DNA from: a virus
Virus record (IMG/VR): IMGVR_UViG_3300031088_000737
Coordinates: 32,001 to 96,000 of that record
Length of the DNA stretch: 64,000 nucleotides
Direction: 5' to 3' (one strand)
The notes beneath the pieces were generated by a model. That model was given only the letters and a program-made list of their open reading frames with translations, was not told the origin of the DNA and did no database searches. The translations under genes were made by a program, and so were the position numbers. Position 1 is the stretch's first letter. Each line of letters opens with the position of its first letter. Positions 2,665 to 47,840 of this stretch are shown here, in pieces.

Positions 2665-3338
2665 CTATATTTTTTTTTCCTGTTCTTGGAATATTTTCCA
2701 TTCTCTTTCAATGATTTCAGTCTGCATCATATACGAAATAGAGCTAGGTTCTATAAGTTCTGGAACCTTTGCCAACTTTTCTTTACTTAGTAATGTTTTA
2801 ATTACGAATCCTAATGTAATTCCGACGACCTTGCCATCTTCTCCATAAATCGGACCACCTGACATGCCCATTATGCTGGATATGTTATTAAGTTTGTAAA
2901 GTTCTACCGATTTTTTGTTATTTATTTCAACATCTTTCTGAAATCTTGTTAAGAGCGATACACCTTCTGTTTTAGCTGGTATATACAGTGGGGAAGTACC
3001 ATAAGCGGTTAATTTTTCATTCGGAACGGAATGTCTCCACTCAGGAATATTACCAGTTGCTTTTCTTTTGATAAAGACTAAATCGCATCCTGTACTGCAG
3101 GTGTAAGCGATGTTTCTTAACAAGGGCGTATGTTTGGCCGTCACACAGCATAATCTTCGTTCCATTGAACAGATGACGCAACAAAGAATAAAGGTAAAGG
3201 AAAGCCAGAAAATACAGGCTCGTAGCCTGTTGCTTTTTCAGCAGATGTTAATTGAATGGTGCCATTACAACCAGAAAGTAAGGTGACAGCCGATATCACA
3301 AGTCCATACTTGATACATTTTGAAAGTCCATTTAACAC
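2665..3338 (-). pseudogene. Frameshifted paralog of the lipoprotein serine protease
   Basis: ORFs 3141..3338 and 2665..3165 join into a full-length paralog if one TG is removed from GCT GTG TG ACG GCC AAA CAT (3142..3147). Confidence 0.75.
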
Positions 3339-16947: not shown

Positions 16948-18804
16948 ATGAGTGGAATTATAGGTCAAATATCATTTGATAAGCAAACAGATAAGCATTT
17001 TATAAAAAAAGGGTTACGTCTTATTGGTCATCGTGGTGAAGATGACAGCGGTTATATGATGACAGACTATGTAGGTATTGGTCATAATCTATTGAGCATT
17101 ACTGGCGATAAAACCAGACAACCCGTAAGTAATAAAGAACGTACTATCTTTGCAGCAGTAAATGGTGAGTTTTACGATTATCAAGATATCATTAAAGAAT
17201 TCAACATGAGTGTCGAGACAAATTCAGATTCTGAAATGATTATTCAACTCTACCAGAGAGGTTTGTTGTTCAAGTATTTAGAGAATGGCAAATTGAATGG
17301 TGAATTCTCATTCTTCCTTTATGACAGTATTAAAAACAAAGTCTACCTTGGAAGAGATTCATTTGGTATTAAACCCCTCTATATTTACCGACACAATGAA
17401 AATGTATATGTATCTTCTGAAATTAAAGGCTTTTTGGCTCTACATAGTTTAGCTTTCGATCCAAACTCATTATACAGTGTGTTAACCATGCAATATCACG
17501 ACACCTATAACACCTTATTTGATGAAGTGAAGCAAGTTCAACCCGGCACTGTATTATTGATTGATGTCAATAAGCGAACGTTCTCTGAAATTACTTATTT
17601 CAACATGAATTTTGAAGAAAACACAAATACCTTTGAAGAAAACAAAATCATCTTGCTTTCCACCCTAAGAAACAGTGTCAGAAGACGCATTGAAAATACT
17701 AAGAAAACAGGGATTGCACTCAGTGGTGGTATTGATTCTGCCTCGGTTCTGGCGTTAGCAGCAGAATGTAGACAACATCTCAATGCCTATACCATTAGTT
17801 TTAAAAATGGAGATGACTATGATGAATTGAAAGCAGCAGAAGAAATGGCTAAACGTTACTCTGCTAATTTTACGCCTATCATTGTTGATGAAAACATGTT
17901 GTTGAAAAACTTAGAGCAGTCTTTGTATCATTCCGAAAACGTTTCAATGAACATGCATGTTGCTTCTAAATATTTGTTGTTTAAGAAAATGGCTGATGAT
18001 GGTTGTAAAGTCTCACTAAGTGGTGAAGGGGCTGATGAAATACTCTTAGGATACCCACATTTTAAAATGGACATGGGATATGGACTTAATATTGAAAATA
18101 ACAAGTACATTTCAGGACTTGATAACTTGTCAGAGATTTTAAACACAGCTAAAATTGAAAAAGAATTAGGTTTTGTACCTACGTTCTTAAAAACTAAATA
18201 TGCATTAGGGTTTAAAATGCATACGCATACGTTGCGTAATGATTACTTAGCTCATTATGTAAACCATGATCCAGCCAGTTATATTATCCGTTTGTATGAA
18301 TTATCGAAAAAGAACAAACCCGTCTTTAATTCAAGTATTCTATGGAGTAAAATAGGCATGAGTAACTATGTGCTCAATGCCCTATGTGATAAAGTCGAAA
18401 TGGCTCACACGATTGAAGGCCGAGTGCCTTTCTTAGATACTGAGTTTTATAACTTTGCTCGCACTATTCCACTTGACCAGAAAATTCATATGGGTCAAGA
18501 AAAATATATCCTTAAAGAAGCTATGAAACCGTTCATTACTGATACAATTTACAATCAGGAAAAACAACCTTTCATTTCACCACCTTTGTTTAACTGGCAG
18601 AACAGTAAGTTTGTGTATGAGCACTTAATGGATGTTGTGCATTCCTCTACTATTCTTAATAGTCATTGTTTTGATCAAGCAAAGATACTGAATATGATTG
18701 ATTTGATTAAGGCTGGAAAACTTGAAGCCAGTAGTTATGACCAAGTGATTATGATGATATTTAGTCTTTATTATTTAGATAAAAACTTTTGTAGAAATCC
18801 TTAA
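16948..18804 (+). CDS. asnB: Asparagine synthase (AsnB)-like amidotransferase with Ser in place of the catalytic N-terminal Cys
   Basis: HRGED, VNGEFY, GRDSFGIKPLY, LSGGIDSA, SGEGADE, EGRVPFLD; N-terminus MSGII. Confidence 0.85.
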   Translation: MSGIIGQISFDKQTDKHFIKKGLRLIGHRGEDDSGYMMTDYVGIGHNLLSITGDKTRQPVSNKERTIFAAVNGEFYDYQDIIKEFNMSVETNSDSEMIIQLYQRGLLFKYLENGKLNGEFSFFLYDSIKNKVYLGRDSFGIKPLYIYRHNENVYVSSEIKGFLALHSLAFDPNSLYSVLTMQYHDTYNTLFDEVKQVQPGTVLLIDVNKRTFSEITYFNMNFEENTNTFEENKIILLSTLRNSVRRRIENTKKTGIALSGGIDSASVLALAAECRQHLNAYTISFKNGDDYDELKAAEEMAKRYSANFTPIIVDENMLLKNLEQSLYHSENVSMNMHVASKYLLFKKMADDGCKVSLSGEGADEILLGYPHFKMDMGYGLNIENNKYISGLDNLSEILNTAKIEKELGFVPTFLKTKYALGFKMHTHTLRNDYLAHYVNHDPASYIIRLYELSKKNKPVFNSSILWSKIGMSNYVLNALCDKVEMAHTIEGRVPFLDTEFYNFARTIPLDQKIHMGQEKYILKEAMKPFITDTIYNQEKQPFISPPLFNWQNSKFVYEHLMDVVHSSTILNSHCFDQAKILNMIDLIKAGKLEASSYDQVIMMIFSLYYLDKNFCRNP

Positions 18805-26903: not shown

Positions 26904-27332
26904 TTAACCCCAACTAAAATAATCAAACTGTAATTGATTGTTTTCATCTAATCGGGCTTCACTGTCCAAAAATTCTTCAAAATTATAATATTGAATGTCT
27001 ACTGAGTCTGTTTCTGGATCACCGGGATAAATAATGGTACCATAACTGCCATCGTTAATAGGACGTGTATCTATAACAAGTCGATCATTTACGCTGTTTG
27101 TATACACAACAACTAATTTTGAGCGTATTTCTGGTGTGCTGTCATCAATATCAATGTTGAAGTCATTGCCGTCTCCTAATTCTTCTAATGTCAACCATTT
27201 ACCAGAACATTTGTCATCTGAATGTTCAACACCTTCAAATCGTTTGATAAATTTTACATAAGAGATAGGCAACTTAATTCCTAATCTTTTTTCAGCTATC
27301 TTTACACGTTTGGCAAATGTTAACTTTTCCAT
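26904..27332 (-). CDS. SMI1/KNR4-family protein
   Basis: AEKRLGIKLPISYVKFI signature; ...NFEEFL C-terminus. Confidence 0.75.
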   Translation of the reverse strand: MEKLTFAKRVKIAEKRLGIKLPISYVKFIKRFEGVEHSDDKCSGKWLTLEELGDGNDFNIDIDDSTPEIRSKLVVVYTNSVNDRLVIDTRPINDGSYGTIIYPGDPETDSVDIQYYNFEEFLDSEARLDENNQLQFDYFSWG

Positions 27333-29551: not shown

Positions 29552-29611
29552 ACGAGTTTAAAACTAGATATAAAAAAATCCGCTTTTTCTGGCGGATTTT
29601 GTTGTTATATT

Positions 29612-30073
29612 CTATTCATCTGTTTCTTCTTCAATAGTTTCAAGAACTTCTTCGATAAAGAATGTTAAATCATTAATCAATTCTGTTTTATAGTTATCAT
29701 CTTCTATATTGACAATATTATAGATAGATACAATAAATGAGACAAAGAACGGTTCTTGTTGTTCATATTGATTTATCTCTAATGATGTTTGAGCATTAAA
29801 AATATCATTAACATTTTTATCAATATATGGTTTTAAAGCTTTAAAACTGCTGGTTATCTGTGTAATGGTTGTTACACCTTCAAAATCATTAATTTCGCAT
29901 AGTTCGTATAATTTGTTGAGATAGATATCTAATGCTTCATCAATTTTTTCAACACTGTTGTTTTTTATGAATGCTATCATGCCTTTTCGAAGTCTGTCTG
30001 CATCTTTGGAATCAATGTCACCAATTTTGTAATTTTTAACTTTTTTGATTAGTAGTTCTTTAAGATTGAGCAT
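29612..30073 (-). CDS. Helical hypothetical protein
   Basis: 153-aa ORF, GAGG SD. Confidence 0.7.
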   Translation of the reverse strand: MLNLKELLIKKVKNYKIGDIDSKDADRLRKGMIAFIKNNSVEKIDEALDIYLNKLYELCEINDFEGVTTITQITSSFKALKPYIDKNVNDIFNAQTSLEINQYEQQEPFFVSFIVSIYNIVNIEDDNYKTELINDLTFFIEEVLETIEEETDE

Positions 30074-30168
30074 GAAAACACCTCATTATGAGCTGATATT
30101 TTAAATCAGTCATGATGAAATGTCAATTGATTTAAAGAGACTTTTAATCTATTATTTTAATAATAAGC

Positions 30169-30197
30169 TTGCTAAATTCAAAAAAATAACGTATAAT
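30169..30197 (+). promoter_or_regulatory. sigma70 promoter of the proS leader
   Basis: TTGCTA-17-TATAAT. Confidence 0.75.
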
Positions 30198-30222
30198 TTA
30201 AAAATACATAGGAAAATACAAA

Positions 30223-30285
30223 ATGAAAACTAATATTGCATTATTCAAAACTATTCGACCTCTACCGCTCATGTTGGGCGTCTAA
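30223..30285 (+). CDS. Putative proS attenuator leader peptide MKTNIALFKTIRPLPLMLGV
   Basis: AGGA SD; 20 codons with CCT and CCG; its 3' end is complementary to the 5' arm of the downstream terminator. Confidence 0.65.
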   Translation: MKTNIALFKTIRPLPLMLGV

Positions 30286-30312
30286 GACTCTATTTACTTT
30301 TAAATTGACCTT

Positions 30313-30337
30313 AACGCCCAATATGGGCGTTTTTTAT
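30313..30337 (+). terminator. Attenuator terminator upstream of proS
   Basis: AACGCCC-AATAT-GGGCGTT-TTTTATT between the leader ORF and proS. Confidence 0.8.
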
Positions 30338-30395
30338 TGCTCAAAATAAACTATTACAACACAATAAAATAAATCAATTTAAGAGGATACACATC

Positions 30396-31526
30396 ATGAA
30401 ATTTTCAAACATATTTTTTAACAACAGTTCATTCGCTAAAGATAACCAATCATTGAACTTGGTAGACTTAACTAAAAAAGCGTGCTTCTTTAACCAAGAC
30501 TCATCTGGCATTTACTCCACTTTGTCACTGGGCTATATCTTAGAGAAGAAGATAGAACGAATCATCGAAGATGAGTTATCAGAGATAGGCTTTTCACAAA
30601 TGCGTTTAAGTTTAATTCAAGACGCTGATTTATGGAAAGAAACAGGTCGATATGACCAATACGGTGAAGAATTATTCAAATTGAAAAATAGGGCTGGCAA
30701 AGAGCTTGTTTTGAGTGCTACATGTGAAGAATCCATCACTAACATTGTGAAGTCTTACTACAATTTCACGAAAACAAATTTGAAGATGTTTCAAATTGGT
30801 AATAAATACAGAGATGAGTTAAGAGCTAAATCTGGTTTAGTGCGTGGTCGTGAGTTTTTAATGTCAGATGCTTATCATTTCTCTAATAGCAAAGAGAATA
30901 TTGTGACGACTTACAATGAAGTGAAAGAAGCCTATATCAGAATATTTACACGTTTAGGATTAGAATTTCATATTCAAGGTTCTGATGTTGGTGAGATGGG
31001 TGGTATAGCCTCAGAAGAGTTCCGTTGTATCAGTGAGTTTGGTGAGGATATCGGTGAAGATGGTAGCAAAAACCTTGAAATAGGACACATCTTTAACTTG
31101 GGCACTCACTACTCTAAAAAAATGGGCTTATTGGATAATATCAAACAACATGTGAATATGGCATGCTTTGGTATTGGTGTATCCAGAACATTGATGGCTT
31201 TATTAGAAAAACAACGTGATGAAAAAGGTTTCTTTGGCACTGCAGCTTTCAATACCTTTGATTACATTATAACGGCTATTGATTATGAGAAGAATAAAGA
31301 AGTCGCTGATGGTCTTTATCAATCATTAAAGAAACAAGGTTATTCAGTCTTGTTAGATGATAGAAATGTTTCTGCTGGCAATAAGTTCAATGACAGTGAA
31401 TTGATTGGTGTTAGCAATCGCATTATTGTCAGTAACAAGAGTATTGTTAACAATCAATATGAAGTGTTGAACAGAGAAACAAACACGGCGAAAACGGTCA
31501 GTATTGAAGAATTACAACAATTGTAA
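30396..31526 (+). CDS. proS: Minimal prolyl-tRNA synthetase lacking the editing insertion
   Basis: LWKETGRYDQYGEELFKLKNR, motif 2 FQIGNKYRDELRAKSGLVRGREFLM, EIGHIF, motif 3 GIGVSR, anticodon-binding domain; only 376 aa. Confidence 0.9.
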   Translation: MKFSNIFFNNSSFAKDNQSLNLVDLTKKACFFNQDSSGIYSTLSLGYILEKKIERIIEDELSEIGFSQMRLSLIQDADLWKETGRYDQYGEELFKLKNRAGKELVLSATCEESITNIVKSYYNFTKTNLKMFQIGNKYRDELRAKSGLVRGREFLMSDAYHFSNSKENIVTTYNEVKEAYIRIFTRLGLEFHIQGSDVGEMGGIASEEFRCISEFGEDIGEDGSKNLEIGHIFNLGTHYSKKMGLLDNIKQHVNMACFGIGVSRTLMALLEKQRDEKGFFGTAAFNTFDYIITAIDYEKNKEVADGLYQSLKKQGYSVLLDDRNVSAGNKFNDSELIGVSNRIIVSNKSIVNNQYEVLNRETNTAKTVSIEELQQL

Positions 31527-31547
31527 TAACCATGTATAGAGACAACG

Positions 31548-31568
31548 AAACCGCCTAGGCGGTTTTTT
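31548..31568. terminator. Intrinsic terminator after proS
   Basis: aaaccgcc-ta-ggcggtttttt. Confidence 0.75.
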
Positions 31569-31586
31569 GTTTTACATTTTTTTTAA

Positions 31587-32300
31587 TTACAATCTTGATA
31601 GAAATCTAATTTGATCGGATGTCATTTTTAAACCTTTGGTCGTTGTGAAGGCATATCTTTTGAAATCTTCATATTCTTCGAAGGTTACGTACTTGTCTGC
31701 ACGAATCATTTTAAATCTTTCTATAATCTCTGGAACACCTATTTCGTTCACAAGTGCAAGCTTATCTATCATATCATTAGCTGAAAGACCATTAACTTTA
31801 TTATTAATGCCCTCTCTACTACCTTTTGGATAATACACATTGAGTGTTGCATAATCATTTGTATCAATAGCCATTCTTAAATTTTTACCTACATTAGAAT
31901 TTTTAAAATAGATATTTGCCTCAGCTAGTTTATCGTATTTTTCATTAAATTCTGTTTTTACATATTTTTCTGATGATGTTGAATGTATGTATGTAAAAAA
32001 AGCTACCAAAGGAAGAATAATAAAAAGAATCCCCGCTATTTTTTTTAGAAATGAATTGAACACTTCATTTACAAAAATAGGTGTTGAGTACAGCAATACT
32101 AATATAGCGACAATAATCCATATGATAACTGTTTGGTCATGATACATAGCGATTTGTGATGACATGTTTGTTTCTTGTATGAACGACATCAAATGATACG
32201 GTAAAAAATATAACAATCCATAGCCAATGACTAAACCTAACGCGATTGAACCTACAACTGGCCCACCTAAAATAATTAACTCAAACAACAACTCTAACAT
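31587..32300 (-). CDS. Membrane protein (about three N-terminal TM segments)
   Basis: Hydrophobic N-half, AGGAG SD. Confidence 0.75.
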   Translation of the reverse strand: MLELLFELIILGGPVVGSIALGLVIGYGLLYFLPYHLMSFIQETNMSSQIAMYHDQTVIIWIIVAILVLLYSTPIFVNEVFNSFLKKIAGILFIILPLVAFFTYIHSTSSEKYVKTEFNEKYDKLAEANIYFKNSNVGKNLRMAIDTNDYATLNVYYPKGSREGINNKVNGLSANDMIDKLALVNEIGVPEIIERFKMIRADKYVTFEEYEDFKRYAFTTTKGLKMTSDQIRFLSRL

Positions 32301-32362
32301 AACAAAACTCCTTTTAGTTATGAATTTTTACATTTATTCTTTTTCAAGTCAATCCTATTTAG

Positions 32363-33361
32363 TTAAATTTTAAGCATAGTGAGTGATATCAGATAACTTT
32401 GAAAAGCTTCTGGTGTTTGAAATTCTCCAATTGTTGGATCTATTTTTAATTTTGTTACATCTTCAACAAAGGATGTAAATATTGGATCATAAAAATCTTG
32501 ATAATTATCAGAAATATATTTTAAAATAACTGTATCCATTTCAGTTTGACTAATTGAATAATTTTTTTGAATATTGACATTGATTATATTGTCCCCCATA
32601 TATTCTAAAATAAATTTCATTTTTTTATCTAGACGTGACTTCATGCCATTATTAAAGGATGCAAATAGAGTATGGTTTTCAAATAAATGGTGGACAGCAT
32701 TAAACATTTTTGAGAGGTTAGCATTATATAGCTCTACTTTTTGTTTAATTTCAGTAGGCAATGTAATAGATGAATTACAAGTCAGTAGATCATTTATAAA
32801 ATGAGCTTCACCCACGTAAACTGGATTCTCTTTAATATGTATGATATTGCTATCATGACTAAACCCATAATCTGTTTTTAAAATTCTTACAAGACCATCA
32901 TGACCACTAGCTACCTTTCTCAATCTGAAATTGCCAAAGATAGGAATGCTCACATCAGTTACAAAATCGTAAGACTCTCCACTTTCCATTGAGCTTCTTA
33001 TAATAATTTTTTCAAAAATGTCTTTAAAATATTTTGTTGAATAAGACGTTTCACTATTTTCAAATCGAGCGGTTGTATAATTGTCTTTTGAATCTATTGT
33101 CAATGAAGTATTATTCAAATTCCCATTTTTTCTCACTCTTAAACCTATAGTTTTGTTTCTACTATCAAAGTAAAAATGAAGGTCAGATGGATGTTGATAG
33201 TTGATTAAGATATAAGTCAAGAGGTTGTCGATAGGTTCAAAGGTTTTAGAATTATAAAAAACGCCATCTTTTTCTATATATTCAAGTGAGCTTAATTCAC
33301 ATCCAAGAAGACTTAAAAATTTAAGGGCGTTGTCTAATTCTTTTGTTTCAAAGTTCAGCAT
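32363..33361 (-). CDS. Hypothetical protein (M-4 family)
   Basis: Ends LISLTMLKI. Confidence 0.75.
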   Translation of the reverse strand: MLNFETKELDNALKFLSLLGCELSSLEYIEKDGVFYNSKTFEPIDNLLTYILINYQHPSDLHFYFDSRNKTIGLRVRKNGNLNNTSLTIDSKDNYTTARFENSETSYSTKYFKDIFEKIIIRSSMESGESYDFVTDVSIPIFGNFRLRKVASGHDGLVRILKTDYGFSHDSNIIHIKENPVYVGEAHFINDLLTCNSSITLPTEIKQKVELYNANLSKMFNAVHHLFENHTLFASFNNGMKSRLDKKMKFILEYMGDNIINVNIQKNYSISQTEMDTVILKYISDNYQDFYDPIFTSFVEDVTKLKIDPTIGEFQTPEAFQSYLISLTMLKI

Positions 33362-35178: not shown

Positions 35179-38100
35179 ATGTCATTAAATTATACAAATC
35201 AATATATTCAATCAATTTTATCATACATAGATTATATCACGTTTGATGGAACAGATGGTAAAGAAATATTGTTAAATAAAAATTATACGAACTTAACAGA
35301 TAAAACTTCCTTTTTAAATAGGGCTAAAGAATATATAGACAATCCAATAACTTATGCAGAAATGGAATCTAGTTTAGAGTTTTTTACATCACATTTTAAG
35401 ATCATTAATCAGGAAACAGCAGACAATTCTAATGGATTTACGGGAACAACTTACCAGTTGATAAGTCCAATTGAGGGATCTACTTATAATGTTGGAGAAA
35501 TTTTTGTATCTTACACTGGGACAGAGGCAGAGTCTGGTGATTATTTTACGGATTTAAAATTAACTTTTTCTGATTCTATTACTTTTACTAGATCATCACA
35601 AGAACCATTAGCTTTAGATTATTTAAAGAGAACATTAAACAACTCAAATGGAAATGTTGTAAATATTTCAGGACATTCGTTAGGTGGTTATTTAGCAGCA
35701 AGAAGTTATTATTATCTTACAACAGAAGAAATAAAAAAAATAGGTGAGGTGACAACTTTTAATGGAGCTGGTTTTTCTGTTTTAGACGGAGGTTTAGACC
35801 CAGTAAAAAGAGCTTTATATGAAGAAAAAATAAACAATATTTTTTCTTACAGGGGGCTGAATGTTACTACAAGCAATATTGGTGAAATTGATATTTCTAA
35901 TGCTTTGAAAGGTTCTTGGACACTTATTTCAACTTTTCAACATTTAGGTCCAAGAATAGGTGTATTTACTGAAAATCCGGGTGGATGGAAAGGAAATCAT
36001 AGCATGTCTATGTTAGTCAACACTATGGGATTTTATTCTATTTTAAGTAAAATAATTACTGATGTTTTCTATGTTGAAGATGATAACGGTGTCGAATATT
36101 TGGGTGATGATGCTGTTGTTTATTGGGTTAATAAGCTGTTGAGTGGTTCGTTTTATGACACTATTGATTTTGGACAAGCTTATAATACATTAGCTTCCAA
36201 AATAATGGAAATGTTTAATATACCAGAAAATGAGAGTTCAAAAGCAGGTTACCCATCAGCTCAATTTCTTTCTTTATTTGATTATTTTACAGAAAATAAT
36301 AATTTAAAAATTAAAATATTTGAAAATGTTCATTCAGAATCACCTGTTATAACTAATTTTGATAACAATAGTAATCGTGCTTATATGTATGCATTATTAA
36401 ATGACTTACCATTTACTGTTATTGTTCCTGAATCTTATAATACAGGGATATACCAAAAAACAAACCAAGATGGTTTTCAATATACATCAAATATAAAATA
36501 TAATGTAGAATATTATAGTGAGGATTATATAAGTCTAAGATCTATTTACAATAAACTATATACAAAGATACTATCTGACAAATTATCAAGTTCTTTAACT
36601 TATAATTTCACTGATGCTACTATTGTTATAGATGGTTTTGATAAATTTGCATTTATTGATGAAATCAATGTATCTGGAAGCCCAAATAATTACAACGTAA
36701 TTTATGTAAATACAACAAAAGATGAATACATTCCTGATAACGTTCCATTGATCTATTTTAAAGCTGACACTGGTCGTTATCTTGATGTAAAACTCGGTAA
36801 TGCTATTATATATGACACACCGGGTAACGACTCTATTAGGATATATTCAGATAATAATATAATCAACTCCACTTATGGCACAGATATTATTGAAATAGTA
36901 AGTGGAACTGTTGGCAATGTGATTATGCTGAAAGATTTAATAGCCACTGATAAAGAGCAATCCTTGATTGTTAGAAATAACAGTCAATTAGAGCACAGTC
37001 TTACTATCAGTGCTGATAATGTTAACATGGGAGATCTGATTGGAAGAATTAGTGATAACAAGGATTTCACATTAGATTTCGGTAATAAGGTTATAATTCT
37101 TTCAGGTAATACTGATTTAAATGTGGGTGGTTCTCAACATTCTTCGGCAGATATCAATGCTTTATTAAAAAACTTCCCTGAATTGTATTCAGTAGCGGCA
37201 GGACATAATTTTGTTTTTAATGAAAAATTTATTGATGATTACATAAAGATCACAGCCAAAAACTTTTCTGGTCAACTTGGATATGAAAACACACAAACAG
37301 TATCGTCAGAACATGCTGCTTATGTAATTGACAAGTTAACACAATATAGCCAAGACATGAATGATTCTTCATCATTATTCATACAAGAAGAAAAAAATAA
37401 ATTGAATAATAAAGTTACAAGTATCTCTTCATCATTAAATGTGAATGGATTACAAGAAGATATCTTAAATATGGTCATCCCATTAATAAAAAACAAAGTT
37501 GAAGCACAGTCAGTTGCTTTTATTCTTCAAAACAAGTTAGATGATTTTAAATATTTAGATCTTAGTCATCAAGTTAATATGGCAACAGAAGATGGCATGG
37601 CTAATAATAGAGCTGATAACATATATGGAAAAAAAGAAACGAAAAATTATATAGCACACTATACTTCTGAAGGTGATAAATATTGGGTATGGGATGGTAA
37701 ATATTATTATAATAGAGCTATTGATGGGGTTCAAGTATCTGCTTTTTATGATAGTGTTGAACGTGGTGAAGTAATGAATTATTATGTAGAGAATATTGTT
37801 TTGAAAAGCAGTTCAACATTTAGCAGTAATGTTCTTTCTGGATCTAATGGGTCGGATCTTTTAATTGGTGAACATGTTTATGGTCAAACAAACGATTTTG
37901 GAGTCGCAGGTGGAAAGACAGTCACAGAAGCAAACACCGTACAAAATGGAAATGATATTTTAATCGGTAAAGTAGCATCAGCATATTCAGGTAATAATTT
38001 TATATATGGTTCAGAAGGTGCCTATGGAGGATCAGGTAATGATTTGATTATTGGTGGTGGGACGATTATGGCAAATCAAAATTATAAAAATGATACAGAA

Positions 38101-41100
38101 AGCACTAATAATGAAAATGAGATAATAATATTATCATTATCAGATGTATATAGTTCTAATGGTAAAAATAATATTATAGATTTAGGCGAGGCAGGCAGCA
38201 ATATATTTGGAACTAGAAATGATACTTTTATTGGTGGTAGTGGACATTCTACATTTATTGGTGGTTATAATGCTTATTTTGCTTTAAGATATGGTGACAT
38301 CTCTTTTGGTTTGGATGGTGAGAATTTCTTAGAAACATTTAGAATGAAATTTAATATTCTTGATGATTTTTATAATTTACATAAAGTTAATCAATCTTTA
38401 GGTAAAAATATTATTTTAGCTGGCTCAGGTGGTGTGTCTGCTTCTCTTGGATATGGTGATTATATAGAGAATATGAAAGGTGGCGGTGGACAAATTATCG
38501 GATTAGGTGGTAATGATATATTTATTAAAGATCATACAGGTATAATATCAGGTGGTTCATCTAATATTAATATAACAGGAAATAATAATACAGTATATTT
38601 TGGAGTCAAAGATCAATATAGTTTATCTAATGCAAATAATAATATTTTGTATAGTAGAGGTTATCGAGATAATATTAATTTGGGTAATGATTACTATCAA
38701 ATTACTGGTATAGATAATACTCTATTATTAGGTAAATCTTCTTATAATATAAAATTAGATGGCGAAAGCACCCAAGTTAAATTTAAAGAAAATAACAATA
38801 ATAACAACATTGTTATAAATGAATCTAAAACTACATCTATTGATGTTGGCTTTCAAAATATCCTGACTATTGAAAGCCAAAATGAAATTTCTTTAAGATA
38901 TGGAAATCTTACTGAGCTTTTAATAAATACCAGATCACCATTAAGCCTTAATAGTATTATATCTGATCGCATTGTGTTACAAAATTATAATGGTATGAAT
39001 AACAGTGATATTTTTGCTTTATATAGTGTTACTGTTGACAACTTAACTGCTAGTAGTGGTATTATAACAGGCAGTGTAACTGATGTGTCAACAGCTAGTT
39101 TTGAAGGGACATTAGGCGGATTTTCTTTAAATGGTTCTGCTCTAGGAGCAAATGTTGAATTGAAAGGTTTTATTGAAGGTGTGAATACTTTATTTAATAA
39201 CGTCAAATCATTTAATTTTCAGCAAACAATTAGAACATACGAGCAAGCTATTATTGAAATTAAAGATTCCAATATTGATAATTATACATCATCAGGGAGC
39301 ACTAGATTTAGTGGACAAAATACAAATATTGATTCATTAACAGTTAGTGGCCTTAAAAACTCAATTTCTGTTGATGGATCTGTCAATTCAGCTATATTAT
39401 CATCAACAAGTGAACTATTTTTTAATGCAAAATCAATTAAGTCATTACAGGCAAGTTCTAATGGAGTAGTTGTCAAAGGTAATAATGTATTAGGTGCAAT
39501 ATCAGTAGGTATGGGCATTTATGGAAATTCTTTAATGGTCGATAATGCTAGTTTTATTGAAGTTTCAAATAGTGGCTATGGTTCAATGTTTTTATCAGTT
39601 ACAAATAGTGATGTCGTTAATATCATTAGTGGCTATTATAACGGAGCTGTTTTTACAAGTGTTAATACTGTAAATATAAATTTAGATAATGTTAATCCAT
39701 TAAGTTCTTTTAATGGCGATAATATACATTTAACATCTACAAAACCATTATCAATTAGATATTCTAACAATAAGTATTATCTTAATAATGTATCATTCAC
39801 TTTTATTCCTGATTCTGTTACTGTATCTGGTCGTCAATATAATTCAGAACAGTTAGCAGTATTATTTGAAGTCTTAAAGAAATCTAACTTAGTTCAAGCT
39901 ACTGCACTAATAGATTCAACTGGGATTGGTTATGACTCGATAGGTGATACTAATAATCAAGGTGTTCATGTTGATAGTGGTATTTACATAGGTACTGATA
40001 GTGATGATATTGTTTATGCTACTGATAATAAGGCTTATCGAATTAAAGCAGGTAAAGGTGATGATTATATTGATTTTGGAACAAAGCCAAGAGATTCTTA
40101 TACTCACATTATAGAGTACAATCGTGGTGATGGTTTAGATACTATTAACAGTAACAGTGAAAATATAGAAATACGATTGGGCAACATCGCATCAAATGAA
40201 TTGTCATTTAAAATGATTGATGATGTAGTTACCAATAATAAAGTCCTTAAAGTTTTTTTAGGAACTGAACAAATATTTACTATCAATGGCTTTCTAATTT
40301 CTAACATAATATTTAAGGCAAGTGATAAAAATATACTAAAAGCTGATATTATTAGTTTAACATCTACTATTTATGGTACTGATAATGGTGAAGTTATTGA
40401 AGGACTAACAACAGATACTTATATTGTTGCTGGAAAGGGTAATGATACTATTAATTTTATAGGAAATAATAAAAATGTTCTCTATTACAGTCGTGGAGAT
40501 GGTGTTGACATTGTTAATTCAGTTAGTAATTTTGAAATAAGATTTTCTGCTGATATTTTAAAGTCCAGCGTTCGATATAGTAAAGTAAGCGAAAATGTAT
40601 ATGACATCTATTTAGATGCAATTAAAATATTAACACTAACGAATACAAATCAATCTAAGTTTATTTTCTCAAATGGTGATGTGGTTGATGGATATTATAT
40701 TAATTCGTATCTGTCTGAACAGTTAGGTGGTAAACCTTTTTATGAAAATGGAATATATACAGGAAGCGACCTTCCCGATTATTATGATTTGTCAGAAGGT
40801 GGTGAATATCATTTAAAAGGTAATAAAGGTAATGATACTTTTAATTTTGGTGGAAATAATGAGCATAGTATCTTAGACTATACCGAAGGTGATGGTGTTG
40901 ATACTTTGGAAGGATATTCTAAAAATGTCGATATTAATTTGATTAACATGTCATCTGAATTTTTAACTTCTATTTATGAAAATGGTTACTTACACTTATA
41001 TTATAAAGGAGTTAAAATCATGAGAATTGATGATGTTGATAAATCAAATATTAATATTCACATGAGTGATAAGTCTTTTACTCAAACAGAAATTTTCATA

Positions 41101-42108
41101 TGGGCTTATGGTGAATCAGAAACTACCCCCACAGATCCAGCAAATACTGATGGCGATGATATTATTACGAATGACCCAACAATAGATAACAATATATATG
41201 CTGGTAAAGGTAATGACATTATTAATTTAACAAGTAATCCAGCTTATCCAAATGTTGTAAATAATATCTATTATTTTGATGGCGATGGACATGAAACAAT
41301 TAATAATGATTCAAATAGCAAATATAAAATTTTGTTAGCTAATACTATTGCAGAAGAAGATGTTTCTTACAACACTGGATTTGTAAATGGTTCTGTAATG
41401 CTTTATATTTCTTATAAAAACGATGTTATTTTCACGATCCCATCTTTCAATTTTAATGATTTCACAATTGATTATTTATCATCAGGAAATTCTATTGATA
41501 TGGATTCATTATCAGAAAATTTGATGATGAATTATGGAACAGATGGTGACGACATTTTAACATCAAATCAAGGAGTTGCTGTATTTTTTGCAGATGATGG
41601 TAACGATATTATTAATGTATCTTCTAACATTATGGCTGCTGATATTTATGCAGGCGGTGGTGATGATACGATAAATATTAATAATTATGGATTTAACAAT
41701 ATTAATTATAATGATGGAGATGGATACGATACTATTATCTTAAATAATCATGATAACACTATGATTTTAAATTTATATGACTATGATGAAGCTTCTATTA
41801 GATTCGAATATGATTTAACAAATCCAAATAATTTAAATATTTATAGTGATGAAACGAAAATTATTACAATTGAAAATTATGTGATTGATGATGTATCATT
41901 CGAGTCTATATCTATTGAGTTAAATGATAACACACTTGAAGGAGCTGATATTAATGCCAAAGCTGTTTCAGGTAGTGAGTCTTCTAAATTATTAGCGGAT
42001 TCCAACATTAATGGTCTTATTAGTTTCATGGCTTCTACACCAGATGATTCAGATACAGCAACCAGTGATACTCAATCGGCATCTAGTTATATAAAAAAGA
42101 ATGAGTAA
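35179..42108 (+). CDS. 2309-aa RTX-repeat protein with N-terminal alpha/beta-hydrolase (lipase) domain
   Basis: ISGHSLGGYLA nucleophile elbow; many GxGxD-type repeats (AGKGDDYI, AGKGNDTI, AGGGDDTI, GDGxDT); C-terminal LISFMAS resembling type I secretion tails. Confidence 0.85.
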   Translation: MSLNYTNQYIQSILSYIDYITFDGTDGKEILLNKNYTNLTDKTSFLNRAKEYIDNPITYAEMESSLEFFTSHFKIINQETADNSNGFTGTTYQLISPIEGSTYNVGEIFVSYTGTEAESGDYFTDLKLTFSDSITFTRSSQEPLALDYLKRTLNNSNGNVVNISGHSLGGYLAARSYYYLTTEEIKKIGEVTTFNGAGFSVLDGGLDPVKRALYEEKINNIFSYRGLNVTTSNIGEIDISNALKGSWTLISTFQHLGPRIGVFTENPGGWKGNHSMSMLVNTMGFYSILSKIITDVFYVEDDNGVEYLGDDAVVYWVNKLLSGSFYDTIDFGQAYNTLASKIMEMFNIPENESSKAGYPSAQFLSLFDYFTENNNLKIKIFENVHSESPVITNFDNNSNRAYMYALLNDLPFTVIVPESYNTGIYQKTNQDGFQYTSNIKYNVEYYSEDYISLRSIYNKLYTKILSDKLSSSLTYNFTDATIVIDGFDKFAFIDEINVSGSPNNYNVIYVNTTKDEYIPDNVPLIYFKADTGRYLDVKLGNAIIYDTPGNDSIRIYSDNNIINSTYGTDIIEIVSGTVGNVIMLKDLIATDKEQSLIVRNNSQLEHSLTISADNVNMGDLIGRISDNKDFTLDFGNKVIILSGNTDLNVGGSQHSSADINALLKNFPELYSVAAGHNFVFNEKFIDDYIKITAKNFSGQLGYENTQTVSSEHAAYVIDKLTQYSQDMNDSSSLFIQEEKNKLNNKVTSISSSLNVNGLQEDILNMVIPLIKNKVEAQSVAFILQNKLDDFKYLDLSHQVNMATEDGMANNRADNIYGKKETKNYIAHYTSEGDKYWVWDGKYYYNRAIDGVQVSAFYDSVERGEVMNYYVENIVLKSSSTFSSNVLSGSNGSDLLIGEHVYGQTNDFGVAGGKTVTEANTVQNGNDILIGKVASAYSGNNFIYGSEGAYGGSGNDLIIGGGTIMANQNYKNDTESTNNENEIIILSLSDVYSSNGKNNIIDLGEAGSNIFGTRNDTFIGGSGHSTFIGGYNAYFALRYGDISFGLDGENFLETFRMKFNILDDFYNLHKVNQSLGKNIILAGSGGVSASLGYGDYIENMKGGGGQIIGLGGNDIFIKDHTGIISGGSSNINITGNNNTVYFGVKDQYSLSNANNNILYSRGYRDNINLGNDYYQITGIDNTLLLGKSSYNIKLDGESTQVKFKENNNNNNIVINESKTTSIDVGFQNILTIESQNEISLRYGNLTELLINTRSPLSLNSIISDRIVLQNYNGMNNSDIFALYSVTVDNLTASSGIITGSVTDVSTASFEGTLGGFSLNGSALGANVELKGFIEGVNTLFNNVKSFNFQQTIRTYEQAIIEIKDSNIDNYTSSGSTRFSGQNTNIDSLTVSGLKNSISVDGSVNSAILSSTSELFFNAKSIKSLQASSNGVVVKGNNVLGAISVGMGIYGNSLMVDNASFIEVSNSGYGSMFLSVTNSDVVNIISGYYNGAVFTSVNTVNINLDNVNPLSSFNGDNIHLTSTKPLSIRYSNNKYYLNNVSFTFIPDSVTVSGRQYNSEQLAVLFEVLKKSNLVQATALIDSTGIGYDSIGDTNNQGVHVDSGIYIGTDSDDIVYATDNKAYRIKAGKGDDYIDFGTKPRDSYTHIIEYNRGDGLDTINSNSENIEIRLGNIASNELSFKMIDDVVTNNKVLKVFLGTEQIFTINGFLISNIIFKASDKNILKADIISLTSTIYGTDNGEVIEGLTTDTYIVAGKGNDTINFIGNNKNVLYYSRGDGVDIVNSVSNFEIRFSADILKSSVRYSKVSENVYDIYLDAIKILTLTNTNQSKFIFSNGDVVDGYYINSYLSEQLGGKPFYENGIYTGSDLPDYYDLSEGGEYHLKGNKGNDTFNFGGNNEHSILDYTEGDGVDTLEGYSKNVDINLINMSSEFLTSIYENGYLHLYYKGVKIMRIDDVDKSNINIHMSDKSFTQTEIFIWAYGESETTPTDPANTDGDDIITNDPTIDNNIYAGKGNDIINLTSNPAYPNVVNNIYYFDGDGHETINNDSNSKYKILLANTIAEEDVSYNTGFVNGSVMLYISYKNDVIFTIPSFNFNDFTIDYLSSGNSIDMDSLSENLMMNYGTDGDDILTSNQGVAVFFADDGNDIINVSSNIMAADIYAGGGDDTININNYGFNNINYNDGDGYDTIILNNHDNTMILNLYDYDEASIRFEYDLTNPNNLNIYSDETKIITIENYVIDDVSFESISIELNDNTLEGADINAKAVSGSESSKLLADSNINGLISFMASTPDDSDTATSDTQSASSYIKKNE

Positions 42109-45613: not shown

Positions 45614-45697
45614 TGGTGCGGAAAGTGGGACTCGAACCCACACGCCTCTCGGCACTGGCTTCTAAGACCAGCGTGTCTACCATTCCACCATTTCCGC
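45614..45697 (-). tRNA. tRNA-Leu(UAG)
   Basis: GCGGAAA/TTTCCGC-A-CCA; loop CT TAG AA; long variable arm. Confidence 0.95.
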
Positions 45698-45704
45698 ATA
45701 GACA

Positions 45705-46049
45705 TTAATATTTCTTTTCAATATAATTTAAATCAACATTTTCAAAGATAAAATCTATATTATTATTTTTGCAACAGGTTATCAAATCTTGATAGTCTTC
45801 AAAATCATTGGCATCATAATCAGGAATACTATCTTCATGTTCATATAAATCAATTAAACTGTAACTCAACTCAGTTTCATCAACACCAGCAATATCGGAC
45901 CATTCTTTTCGAATAGAACGTTTAAAGACATAATCAGTAAAATCTTCTTTATGTGGCTCTGCAACCAGTTCGCCATCAAGGAAGATATTCCAATAACGAT
46001 TGTCATACAAATTAACGATAACAATTTTACCTTTCACTGAGTTTGTCAT
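45705..46049 (-). CDS. Small acidic hypothetical protein inside the tRNA operon
   Basis: Start moved to MTNSVKG; the track extension runs into a tRNA gene. Confidence 0.65.
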   Translation of the reverse strand: MTNSVKGKIVIVNLYDNRYWNIFLDGELVAEPHKEDFTDYVFKRSIRKEWSDIAGVDETELSYSLIDLYEHEDSIPDYDANDFEDYQDLITCCKNNNIDFIFENVDLNYIEKKY

Positions 46050-46084
46050 GTTTAAATACCTTTGTAAGAAATAAAACATAAAGT

Positions 46085-46168
46085 TGGTGCCCGAAGACGG
46101 ACTCGAACCGTCACTCCCGAAGGAAGGGGATTTTAAGTCCCCCGCGTCTACCATTTCGCCATTCGGGC
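46085..46168 (-). tRNA. tRNA-Leu(UAA)
   Basis: GCCCGAA/TTCGGGC-A-CCA; GGGGA CT TAA AA TCCCC. Confidence 0.95.
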
Positions 46169-46178
46169 ATAAAAAAGT

Positions 46179-46274
46179 AATTCAATATTTTAGAATGCAT
46201 TTCAGCAAACGTGTCTACCACTCCACCACCCCGTGCAAACACGAGAAAAGGATTCGAACCTTCGATATTGAATT
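46179..46274 (-). ncRNA. Circularly permuted tRNA-like RNA (T arm, loop-closed acceptor stem, D arm)
   Basis: AATTCAATAT/ATATTGAATT outer stem; GAAGG TTCGAAT CCTTT; TCTCGTG-TTTG-CACGGGG; TG GTG GAGTGGTAGA CAC. Confidence 0.75.
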
Positions 46275-46279
46275 AAATC

Positions 46280-46364
46280 TGGTCCCCGGAGCCGGACTCG
46301 AACCGGCACGCCTTTCGGCGGGAGATTTTAAGTCTCCTGTGTCTACCAATTCCACCATCCGGGG
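46280..46364 (-). tRNA. tRNA-Leu(UAA)
   Basis: CCCCGGA/TCCGGGG-A-CCA; GGAGA CT TAA AA TCTCC. Confidence 0.95.
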
Positions 46365-46382
46365 ATAAACACATGTACAATC

Positions 46383-46468
46383 TGGTACCCGAAGTCGGAC
46401 TCGAACCGACACGCTTTTCAGCGGGAGATTTTGAATCTCCTGTGTACTACCAATTTCACCATTCGGGC
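46383..46468 (-). tRNA. tRNA-Leu(CAA)
   Basis: GCCCGAA/TTCGGGT-A-CCA; GGAGA TT CAA AA TCTCC. Confidence 0.93.
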
Positions 46469-46479
46469 ATATCTAAATC

Positions 46480-46564
46480 TGGTACGGAAGATGGGACTCG
46501 AACCCACACGCCTCGCGGCACTGGTTTCTGAAACCAGCATGTGCTACCATTTCATCACTTCCGC
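46480..46564 (-). tRNA. tRNA-Leu(CAG)
   Basis: GCGGAAG/CTTCCGT-A-CCA; CTGGT TT CAG AA ACCAG. Confidence 0.93.
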
Positions 46565-46578
46565 ATTAACTCATAATT

Positions 46579-46664
46579 TGGTACCCGAAGTCGGACTCGA
46601 ACCGACACGCCTTTCAGCGGGAGATTTTAAGTCTCCTGTGTACTACCAATTTCACCATTCTGGC
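46579..46664 (-). tRNA. tRNA-Leu(UAA) with one acceptor-stem mismatch
   Basis: GCCAGAA/TTCGGGT-A-CCA (A4:G69 mismatch); GGAGA CT TAA AA TCTCC. Confidence 0.88.
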
Positions 46665-46675
46665 ATATCTAAATT

Positions 46676-46759
46676 TGGTGCGTTAGGTGAGACTCGAACT
46701 CACAATCCTTTCGGCACTGGCTTCTTAGACCAGCGTGTATACCATTCCACCACTAACGC
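46676..46759 (-). tRNA. tRNA-Leu(AAG)
   Basis: GCGTTAG/CTAACGC-A-CCA; CTGGT CT AAG AA GCCAG. Confidence 0.93.
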
Positions 46760-46768
46760 ATGATTTGT

Positions 46769-46915
46769 CGCTTAAAGTAGGAGTCGAACCTACAAGTCAT
46801 GGACTCAATGTCCATCGCGTCTACCGTTCCGCCATATTAGTAAGATACTAATAACAGGATTCGAACCTGTAATGACAGGGCTATCACCCTATGTCTACCA
46901 TTCCATCATTTAAGC
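46769..46915 (-). ncRNA. Fused double-cloverleaf tRNA-like RNA with swapped acceptor strands
   Basis: Outer GCTTAAA/TTTAAGC; internal TATTAGT-ATCTT-ACTAATA; two D arms, two T arms, two non-canonical anticodon arms. Confidence 0.75.
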
Positions 46916-46919
46916 AATC

Positions 46920-47003
46920 TGGTGCGGAAGGTGGGACTCGAACCCACACGTCTCTCGACACTGGCTTCTAAGGCCAGCACGTCTACCATTTCATCACTTC
47001 CGC
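46920..47003 (-). tRNA. tRNA-Leu(UAG)
   Basis: GCGGAAG/CTTCCGC-A-CCA; CTGGC CT TAG AA GCCAG. Confidence 0.95.
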
Positions 47004-47025
47004 GTGATATTTCTTTACATCAATT

Positions 47026-47109
47026 TGGTGCCCCGAGGGAGACTCGAACTCCCACTCCTTTCGGAAACGGATTTTGAATCCGCCGCGTCTACCATTCCGC
47101 CATCGGGGC
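47026..47109 (-). tRNA. tRNA-Leu(CAA)
   Basis: GCCCCGA/TCGGGGC-A-CCA; GCGGA TT CAA AA TCCGT. Confidence 0.95.
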
Positions 47110-47141
47110 TTATGTTGTAGCTACATATCTTACTATAAATC

Positions 47142-47225
47142 TGGTGCGATTGGAGAGACTTGAACTCTCAATCCTTGCGGCATTGGCTTCTTAGACCAAC
47201 GTGTATACCATTCCACCACAATCGC
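47142..47225 (-). tRNA. tRNA-Leu(AAG)
   Basis: GCGATTG/CAATCGC-A-CCA; TTGGT CT AAG AA GCCAA. Confidence 0.93.
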
Positions 47226-47232
47226 ATATCTT

Positions 47233-47316
47233 AATGAGTAAAGGGACTCGAACCCTTACGCCTTTATGGGGCATGTCTAAGCGAAGACATTATGGCTACC
47301 ATTACATCATACTCAT
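47233..47316 (-). ncRNA. Leu-type tRNA body with 8-nt anticodon loop and no encoded CCA
   Basis: ATGAGTA/TACTCAT; ATGTC TTCGCTTA GACAT; variable arm GCC..GGC; AAGGG TTCGAGT CCCTT. Confidence 0.7.
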
Positions 47317-47318
47317 CA

Positions 47319-47399
47319 GGGGTTTGACTTTGATAATAGTGAGTTACAAGCTAATAATTACTATGTTTCAAAGTTTCCAGTGGGAACCGGAGCAACCCA
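47319..47399 (-). ncRNA. Candidate structured RNA in the array spacer
   Basis: GGGTT/AACCC closing stem; TCCGG TTCCCA CTGGA hairpin (G-U favours minus strand); ACTTTGA/TCAAAGT and ATAGT/ACTAT stems. Confidence 0.4.
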
Positions 47400-47415
47400 A
47401 TTTTAAATCTTTATT

Positions 47416-47500
47416 TGGTGCGGAAGGTGAGACTTGAACTCACAATCATTATAGAAACTGTGTTTGAGACAGTCGCGTTTACCAGTTTCGCCACATCCGC
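47416..47500 (-). tRNA. tRNA-Leu(CAA)
   Basis: GCGGATG/CTTCCGC-A-CCA (one U-U pair); ACTGT CT CAA AC ACAGT. Confidence 0.9.
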
Positions 47501-47777: not shown

Positions 47778-47840
47778 CTAGCCCAAGCTAAGTAATAGTG
47801 AGCTTAAGAGTAGCAGTGATAATCGAATAGTTGTGAACAT
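47778..47840 (-). CDS. Leucine leader peptide MFTTIRLSLLLLSSLLLSLG
   Basis: GAGGA SD; 9 Leu codons (TTA x3, CTA x2, CTG, CTC, CTT, TTG); missed by the ORF track. Confidence 0.8.
   Translation of the reverse strand: MFTTIRLSLLLLSSLLLSLG

Follow-up and report, generated by a model that had tools for sequence, protein, structure and literature searches.

Why does an intrinsic terminator stand between a promoter and its own gene? The question is raised by a proS gene, encoding a putative prolyl-tRNA synthetase (ProRS), in a stretch of 64,000 nucleotides (the window) that corresponds to positions 32,001 to 96,000 of the IMG/VR record IMGVR_UViG_3300031088_000737. Positions 30169-31526 (+ strand) of the window hold a whole expression unit consisting of a promoter, a Shine-Dalgarno (SD) sequence, a leader open reading frame (ORF), alternative hairpins, a U-tract terminator and proS. 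Because the gene 5′ of this unit (29612-30073) is encoded on the opposite strand, the terminator lies between the promoter and its own gene and is not the end of a preceding gene. A sequence-only reading of the locus had proposed that proline codons in the leader control the synthetase gene by attenuation. Our analysis indicates that a conserved translation-coupled terminator switch very probably exists here. Because of the conservation, covariation and geometry described below, we think it likely that this switch is a ribosome-mediated leader-peptide attenuator that senses charged tRNA-Pro and gates an accessory ProRS without an editing domain. This mini-ProRS would probably be made only when ribosomes are short of charged proline tRNA.

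The features of the unit are listed with the evidence for each in brackets.

30169-30197, + strand: sigma-70-type promoter, TTGCTA-17-TATAAT (consensus scan, 10 of 12 matches)
30210-30213, + strand: leader SD AGGA, 9 nt 5′ of the ATG (read from the sequence)
30223-30285, + strand: leader ORF of 20 codons, MKTNIALFKTIRPLPLMLGV and a stop codon, with CCT at codon 13 and CCG at codon 15 (translation)
30256-30261, + strand: conserved codon pair CGA-CCU (Arg-Pro), with the predicted sensing Pro codon at 30259-30261 (conservation)
30266-30273, + strand: segment 1, CGCTCATG, predicted to pair locally with segment 2 or long-range with segment 4 and to be covered by a ribosome at Pro13 (folds, covariation, footprint)
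30274-30281, + strand: segment 2, TTGGGCGT, the predicted antiterminator strand, which pairs with segment 3 (folds, covariation, footprint)
30283-30312, + strand: spacer with a small apical hairpin (minimum-free-energy folds); relatives have a hairpin of other sequence there
30313-30335, + strand: intrinsic terminator, made of segment 3 (30314-30321), segment 4 (30322-30329) and U6 (30330-30335) (terminator scan)
30383-30387, + strand: proS SD GAGGA (read from the sequence)
30396-31526, + strand: proS, encoding a predicted 376-aa ProRS without the insertion (INS) editing domain (ORF and profile matches)
31547-31566, both strands: two-way terminator closing the proS transcript (terminator scan, both strands)

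The promoter, the AGGA, the 20-codon ORF with its CCT and CCG codons and the stem plus T6 ahead of proS, all reported by the sequence-only reading, are present at these positions. The regulatory element is ~110 nt long, and 60 AT-rich bases separate the leader terminator from proS. The terminator stem has 7-8 bp with 5 G-C pairs and a 3-nt loop, the hairpin alone folds with -9.1 kcal/mol, and it is kept in all relatives.

Conservation of the leader among relatives

The ProRS encoded here belongs to a tight family of ~95 clusters, 370-385 aa in length and 46-94% identical. We compared the upstream DNA of 13 distinct relatives from this family that span the same range of protein identity, and we counted their leader peptides as 10 lineages. 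The entire unit, from promoter, SD and short ORF through the hairpins and the U-tract terminator to proS, is kept in 13 of 13 relatives, with a terminator-to-proS distance of 15-60 nt (46-60 nt in 12 of them). In the AT-rich relatives (L005, L006, L009, L090, L093, L099 and L100), TTGAYW-17-TATnnT is found by eye at the equivalent place, and AGGA, AAGGA or GGAAA stands at an equal distance from the leader as its SD.

A leader ORF of 15-31 codons occurs in equal register in all 13 relatives with an unrelated N-terminal sequence: the first 10-12 residues share almost nothing (MKTNIALFKTI, MSIQIFVKVA, MSTQIFAQGK, MSKLTVVLRGK, MNYLNLLPQ, MTNFKVTFTSF). The sole invariant leader residue is a Pro, which we call the anchor; it is encoded as CCT or CCA in 10 of 10 lineages and is preceded by Arg in 7 of 10, every time as CGA. 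The start codon lies 10-12 codons 5′ of the anchor in every leader, and the stop codon follows five codons past it in 7 of 10 lineages. In the window, the anchor codon starts 7 nt 5′ of segment 1 (alignment A2). A translated sensor would be expected to look like this, with ORF length and reading frame preserved around one fixed codon and the remaining sequence free to drift.

The leaders hold 2-4 Pro codons each, which is a modest enrichment, and 8 of 10 lineages have a second Pro three codons after the anchor. The sequence-only reading had taken Pro13 and Pro15 together as the sensing codons. Pro13, within CGA-CCU, is invariant and appears decisive, but Pro15 is not kept as Pro in the relatives, whose second Pro lies at +3 in the stem. 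In the codon usage of the element, CGA makes up 14.6% of Arg codons and Pro 2.6% of all codons, and CGA-CCT is also kept in a copy of the unit in a 61%-GC Paraburkholderia genome. Fixed in both 30%- and 61%-GC genomes, CGA-CCU may serve as a purposely slow combination of P-site and A-site codons that makes the response to Pro-tRNA-Pro sharper.

Mutually exclusive pairings of the leader RNA

The 3′ end of the leader and the terminator form 16 contiguous pairs (30266-30281 with 30314-30329). The sequence-only reading had noted a complementarity between the leader end and the 5′ arm of the terminator; the complementarity is real but longer, spanning the whole terminator. The resulting long hairpin is the fold of lowest free energy (-33.4 kcal/mol, z = -5.85), a stability matched by 0 of 200 shuffles. 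In every member of the family examined, the minimum-free-energy fold likewise joins the leader ORF, at its 3′ end, to the entire terminator.

The long-range pairing is 89.7% paired in alignment A2, with both-side changes in 8 of 15 pairs (19 cells). The covariation score and the pairing were reached by 0 of 500 shuffles and the count of both-side-changed pairs by 1 of 500, and pairing drops to 29-59% when the partner columns are slid. Since bases from the loops of the two local hairpins are among those that covary, the long-range pairing itself appears to be selected. The local pairings are kept too, with 82% paired for 1:2 and 83% for 3:4. Since a plain long hairpin needs no self-complementary strands, the switch between two conformations appears to be selected as well. 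The leader thus contains mutually exclusive terminator and antiterminator pairings, with 2:3 and 1:4 supported by covariation and 1:2 and 3:4 conserved. These are the four segments of a classical attenuator with one addition: the form with 1:4 and 2:3 likewise ends at the U tract. Because the leader end pairs with the whole terminator, an untranslated leader is also predicted to terminate.

We dropped one further candidate pairing, between an anti-SD-like CCUC in the leader and the proS SD, which has 5 bp in the window and by eye 3 bp in most relatives.

Ribosome position and the predicted decision

The four RNA segments could pair in three ways, namely 1:2, 3:4 (the terminator), or 2:3 together with 1:4 as one long hairpin, and the position of the ribosome would decide the outcome. 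Transcription would start at the promoter at 30169-30197, and a ribosome would translate the 20-codon leader. With no ribosome present, either 1:2 and 3:4 or the long hairpin would form; both end at the U tract, and transcription would stop. A ribosome at the stop codon would cover segment 2, so that 3:4 forms and transcription terminates. With the conserved Pro codon (CCU after CGA) waiting in the A site, the ribosome would cover segment 1 only; segment 2 would then capture segment 3, segment 4 would be left partnerless, and RNA polymerase would continue into proS. We infer that the leader is translated and that stalling depends on Pro-tRNA-Pro.

For the footprint folding, the mRNA assumed to lie under the ribosome was masked, starting at the first base of the A-site codon and extending over 11, 13 or 15 nt, and the remainder was folded up to the U tract. 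When no ribosome is placed, the terminator stem is paired at its base, as part of the long hairpin or of the small terminator. Placing the stop codon in the A site yields the small 3:4 terminator (-7 to -14 kcal/mol). If the A site instead holds the conserved Pro codon, 2:3 pairs (-14 to -38 kcal/mol), which leaves the final bases ahead of the U tract unpaired. This read-through state occurs at only 1-3 adjacent A-site codons per leader, out of 16-32 positions, and in 12 of 12 leaders the conserved Pro codon is among them, with all three footprint sizes. In computation, then, the window and all 12 relatives with its leader layout reproduce the earlier proposal that a ribosome at the stop codon leads to termination and one stalled at Pro to antitermination. 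The thirteenth leader (L102) has another sequence with equal four-segment complementarity and fell outside this count only through a trivial 3-bp hairpin.

As a double palindrome whose untranslated long hairpin would still terminate, the leader is predicted to be off in all states except the Pro-codon stall. We know of no classical attenuator for which either a double palindrome or a fixed CGA-CCU pair has been described.

The putatively gated gene encodes a minimal ProRS

Both the class II core (Pfam PF00587) and the anticodon-binding domain (PF03129) are found in the proS product, which matches TIGR00409 (proS_fam_II) with 338 bits against a cut-off of 306.7. The match comes in two stretches, profile positions 1-219 and 407-563, and positions 220-406 are unmatched. 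When aligned to solved structures, residues 218-225 of the product bridge residues 227-413 of the Pseudomonas ProRS, so that the entire INS is skipped and the regions of motifs 2 and 3 are retained. The split profile match and the structure alignment bear out the earlier description of a 376-aa ProRS that lacks the editing insertion. Judged by these alignments, the product is a bacterial-type ProRS with catalytic core and anticodon-binding domain but without the INS editing domain, and it would be expected to charge tRNA-Pro.

The closest described counterpart in architecture that we compared is the truncated-INS ProRS of Rhodopseudomonas palustris (PDB 2i4l; NCBIfam NF008979), which likewise has a class II core and a C-terminal anticodon-binding domain and no full editing domain. 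The mini-ProRS is ~60 residues shorter than this 437-position model, with the insertion cut to ~6 residues, and its score of 311 bits lies under the cut-off of 550; it is therefore not a member of the NF008979 family. Neither a free-standing YbaK/INS-type domain (PF04073) nor a tRNA-Pro gene is present in the 181-kb record, which is a fragment, so these two absences apply to the record and not to the whole element.

A copy of the unit in Paraburkholderia

A contig of Paraburkholderia dipogonis (NZ_JAQQEG010000019.1; L010 2303-3643, L186) encodes a 380-aa mini-ProRS behind a leader that begins MDFLSILPQRPPVP and a terminator. The locus lies at native GC (~61%; 58-66%) amid chromosomal genes for an M20 peptidase, an aldolase and a LysR regulator, and a near-identical arrangement is found on a metagenome contig (L103). 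Because the same 9.3-Mb genome also encodes a full-length ProRS (768 bits over the whole profile), the Paraburkholderia mini-ProRS is a second, accessory copy. No comparable leader is evident by eye upstream of the canonical Paraburkholderia proS.

The sequence-only reading had held that the element backs up Pro-tRNA charging on demand. This part of the proposal draws its support indirectly from the Paraburkholderia genome, in which a full-length ProRS stands besides the mini-ProRS. Candidate roles for the mini-ProRS are a starvation backup, an inhibitor-insensitive copy or a partner for element-encoded tRNAs.

Leaders of other translation genes on the same element

Two further synthetase genes are encoded in the 181-kb record, each behind a sigma-70-like promoter, a short ORF and a U-tract terminator. 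One encodes an IleRS of 841 aa (TIGR00392, 644 bits against a cut-off of 621) and the other a non-discriminating-type AspRS of 422 aa (NF003483, 428 bits against a cut-off of 353). A tRNA-Leu array in the window is preceded by a leader as well.

G000:C1 ~116383-116445 (= L179 ~2984-3046, outside the window), - strand: IleRS leader MKTLNTFVNSIIIIPKLPMS and a stop codon, with four consecutive Ile codons (IIII) and a U-tract terminator, 162 nt before the IleRS gene
G000:C1 ~6675-6746 (= L180 ~1776-1847, outside the window), - strand: AspRS leader MTIRFIADNNDNFAQLSVGLSVA and a stop codon, with 3 Asn and 2 Asp codons (DNNDN) and a terminator, before the AspRS gene
Window 45614-47500, - strand: array of 11 tRNA-Leu genes with five anticodons, one tRNA-Gln-like gene and one odd gene with a 4-base anticodon
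Window ~47778-47840, - strand: leader of the tRNA-Leu array, MFTTIRLSLLLLSSLLLSLG and a stop codon, with 9 Leu codons, among which all six Leu codon types occur, and a U-tract terminator

The AspRS leader is rich in both amino acids whose tRNAs a non-discriminating AspRS charges, and the footprint scan puts its read-through range on N-D-N. Two sister synthetase genes with leaders rich in cognate codons support the interpretation of the proS leader as a Pro sensor. The IleRS and tRNA-Leu leaders count as leader-plus-terminator pairs and not as demonstrated switches.

A broader scheme can be put forward only tentatively. The unit may be a charge-on-demand cassette that is portable and has passed between chromosomes and giant AT-rich elements. 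It may form one arm of an arrangement in which a cognate-codon sensor before each synthetase gene (ProRS, IleRS and non-discriminating AspRS) and before tRNA arrays tops up host translation codon by codon.

A second tRNA cluster (G000:C1 156104-158247, outside the window) holds 6 tRNA-Ala, 3 tRNA-Arg and 2 tRNA-Met genes and one odd gene with a 2-base anticodon.

Alternative explanations

Several observations weigh against a proline-sensing attenuator. Two Pro in 20 leader codons are not significant alone (P ~0.1, binomial estimate with Pro at 2.6%), and promoter-like hexamers are not commoner in this DNA than in shuffles; the case therefore rests on conservation in the relatives. These relatives are homologous, so their agreement does not amount to 13 independent events. 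The second Pro of the relatives lies inside the stem (CGCCU) and may for that reason be fixed by RNA structure and not by coding, so that effectively a single Pro codon carries the argument. Conservation of CGA-CCU at the nucleotide level over a 30-point difference in GC could reflect a role of the RNA or of the nascent peptide and not simple codon hunger. Finally, neither the IleRS leader nor the tRNA-Leu leader shows a read-through state in the footprint scan, which is therefore not a general detector of such switches.

The main rival is a stall of the arrest-peptide or EF-P type, in which a nascent R-P-x-x-P or an EF-P-requiring Pro-Pro step halts the ribosome and the leader reports EF-P activity, free proline or the general state of the ribosome. 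Proline-containing arrest motifs are established, as in the RAGP of SecM and the RAPP peptides. In our leaders, Arg-Pro is kept as a dipeptide, Pro recurs at +3 in 8 of 10 lineages, and some have PP (RPPKP in L093, RPPVP in L010, PQPPI in L099). We nevertheless regard this explanation as unlikely. Most leaders lack PP (RPLPL in the window and L003; none in L009, L090 and L100), and no leader contains RAGP or RAPP. The rest of the leader peptide is not conserved, although an arrest peptide would as a rule require a longer stretch of conserved residues in the tunnel. In the sister leaders, moreover, plain runs of cognate codons are found (IIII, DNNDN and a Leu run), which fits codon hunger.

It would also be possible to read the locus without any regulation, as a short ORF that is a separate small gene or untranslated, a hairpin that is its terminator, and a proS promoter in the 60-nt AT-rich spacer. 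The minimum-free-energy fold, one long hairpin followed by U6, is indeed terminator-like by itself. Promoter-like hexamers are common in AT-rich DNA, and a weak internal promoter may lie in the AT-rich 60 nt before proS, a further point that counts against attenuation. The scan, however, found no promoter-like pair at 30336-30395, and none is conserved by eye in the spacer of the relatives. Both strands of the long hairpin are self-complementary in all relatives, the Pro codon stands in fixed register to segment 1, and leader and proS remain linked from 30%-GC to 61%-GC genomes. We therefore consider an unregulated locus improbable.

Conserved and covarying alternative structures would also be expected of a translation-independent switch, whose folds are set by a bound ligand, a protein or an uncharged tRNA as in riboswitches or T-boxes, and Firmicutes synthetase genes do use T-boxes (PMC1262725). 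Rfam gave no match, T-box included, in 30100-30420 at E-values up to 1, and the whole window gave tRNA matches only. The leader is only ~110 nt long, has no conserved unpaired pocket, and keeps an ORF with SD and fixed length while its sequence drifts, which makes such a switch very unlikely. Just as implausible is a general sensor of translation speed, in which any slowing of elongation (antibiotics, ribosome shortage, stress) gives read-through with no proline specificity: the read-through range spans 2-3 codons, beyond Pro alone, and drug-sensing leader attenuators such as bmrCD are known (PMC4191407), but the invariant residue is Pro, the gated gene encodes ProRS, and the leaders of the sister genes match their own amino acids.

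Relation to known attenuators

Attenuators before synthetase genes have been described for E. coli pheST (pheM) and predicted for Streptomyces trpS and leuS (PMC1262725). Like these, the proS unit combines a short ORF with cognate codons, alternative hairpins and a terminator that would gate the synthetase gene. In comparison with pheM-pheST, it concerns another amino acid, shows no sequence similarity and is found on a giant AT-rich element and on a chromosome. In addition, its 1:2 hairpin is near the reverse complement of the terminator, loops included, and its long 1:4 plus 2:3 hairpin is predicted to terminate too. The pheM ORF has five Phe codons, and here there are one or two regulatory codons.

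Proline codons are used in a similar way in the Salmonella leader ORFs mgtP (mgtCBR leader) and mgtL (mgtA leader), which respond to Pro-tRNA-Pro (PMC3641672). As would be the case for the proS leader, Pro codons at the base of a stem-loop make downstream transcription track proline-charged tRNA-Pro. Unlike the proS leader, mgtP and mgtL act on genes for Mg2+ transport and virulence, and mgtP contains three Pro codons in a row. They show no homology to the proS leader and differ from it in terminator architecture.

A second synthetase that a leader with cognate codons turns on upon a drop in charging is another parallel. Vecchione and Sello (J Bacteriol 192:3565, cited in PMC4787780) reportedly found in 2010 that an auxiliary, antibiotic-resistant TrpRS of Streptomyces coelicolor is under ribosome-mediated attenuation, an arrangement comparable to the housekeeping ProRS and mini-ProRS of Paraburkholderia. 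The amino acid differs, and inhibitor resistance is a feature of that TrpRS which we do not attribute to the mini-ProRS.

Leader attenuation of synthetase genes is documented in very few cases, namely the classic pheST and the tested auxiliary TrpRS of Streptomyces, besides a small number of predictions. In a full-text literature search we came across neither an attenuator before proS nor a phage or giant element whose synthetase genes are described as being under leader-peptide control. Because of its short unit and single conserved sensing codon, the proS leader would be an easy system in which to ask how one hungry codon sets a transcription decision and whether CGA tunes it. It would also mean that translation genes on a giant mobile element are not expressed constitutively but respond, through feedback, to the state of decoding in the host. 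If an editing-less ProRS is made only under proline-charging stress, the fidelity cost (Ala/Cys mischarging) is perhaps accepted only in emergencies, which is a testable question.

Carrier element and distribution

The DNA is a 30%-GC giant element. The window has 30% GC and is part of a record of 181,270 bp that is classed as a provirus with an estimated completeness of 58%, and the enterobacterial framing of the sequence-only reading was thus wrong. Promoters, SD sites and intrinsic terminators of the element are of the bacterial kind.

A blastn search of 29600-32400 against the phage collection gave no match, and a scan of IMG/VR with the single ProRS protein found no relatives. An alignment query of IMG/VR returned no more than three ProRS genes, which are distant (36-39% identity) and lie on ~500-kb phage contigs with tRNA genes or ORFs and no leader upstream of them. 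Five matches from a leader-motif scan of IMG/VR were rejected as chance, all lying in 51-65%-GC DNA with no leader or terminator beside them. Among 121 distant ProRS loci (Patescibacteria, Sulfurimonas and others; 30-40% identity) that were screened for a Pro-containing small ORF and a terminator, no such leader was found. Three flagged loci outside the family proved by eye to be 3′ ends and terminators of upstream genes.

Sampled words of 29600-32400 were recovered at 99-100% in nine runs from six studies (2016-2025), which are labelled as phyllosphere or plant metagenomes or with one of three coded organisms. This distribution suggests that the carrier is widespread and associated with plants, and several of the nine runs may be the record's own source. 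Contigs from RNA libraries cover the leader at 29927-30319 in one run and 30118-30259 in another, together with parts of the proS of a relative; they show neither transcript ends nor strand. A raw-read RNA run had zero reads on the stretch.

Some ProRS homologs lie on contigs of 1.0-1.36 Mb, where the neighboring genes are again mostly orphans; a contig of 1.36 Mb exceeds any phage genome known to us. Related contigs (L090 and L093) carry scattered genes for SerRS, an RNA 2′-phosphotransferase, an RNA ligase-like protein and thymidine kinase.

Most ORFs neighboring the unit are without a Pfam or PHROG family. Those with a family include genes for GAPDH, asparagine synthase (window 16948-18804), an AI-2E transporter, a SUKH immunity protein and a 2309-aa protein. 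The SUKH-1 (SMI1/KNR4) immunity-type gene lies near proS at 26904-27332 (- strand) of the window, and a relative with a ProRS of 67% identity has a SUKH-1 gene immediately 5′ of proS (L009 4271-4699, - strand). The ORF for the 2309-aa protein occupies 35179-42108 (+ strand) of the window, and its sole recognizable part is an N-terminal Mbeg1-like (lipase-like) domain at residues 77-200.

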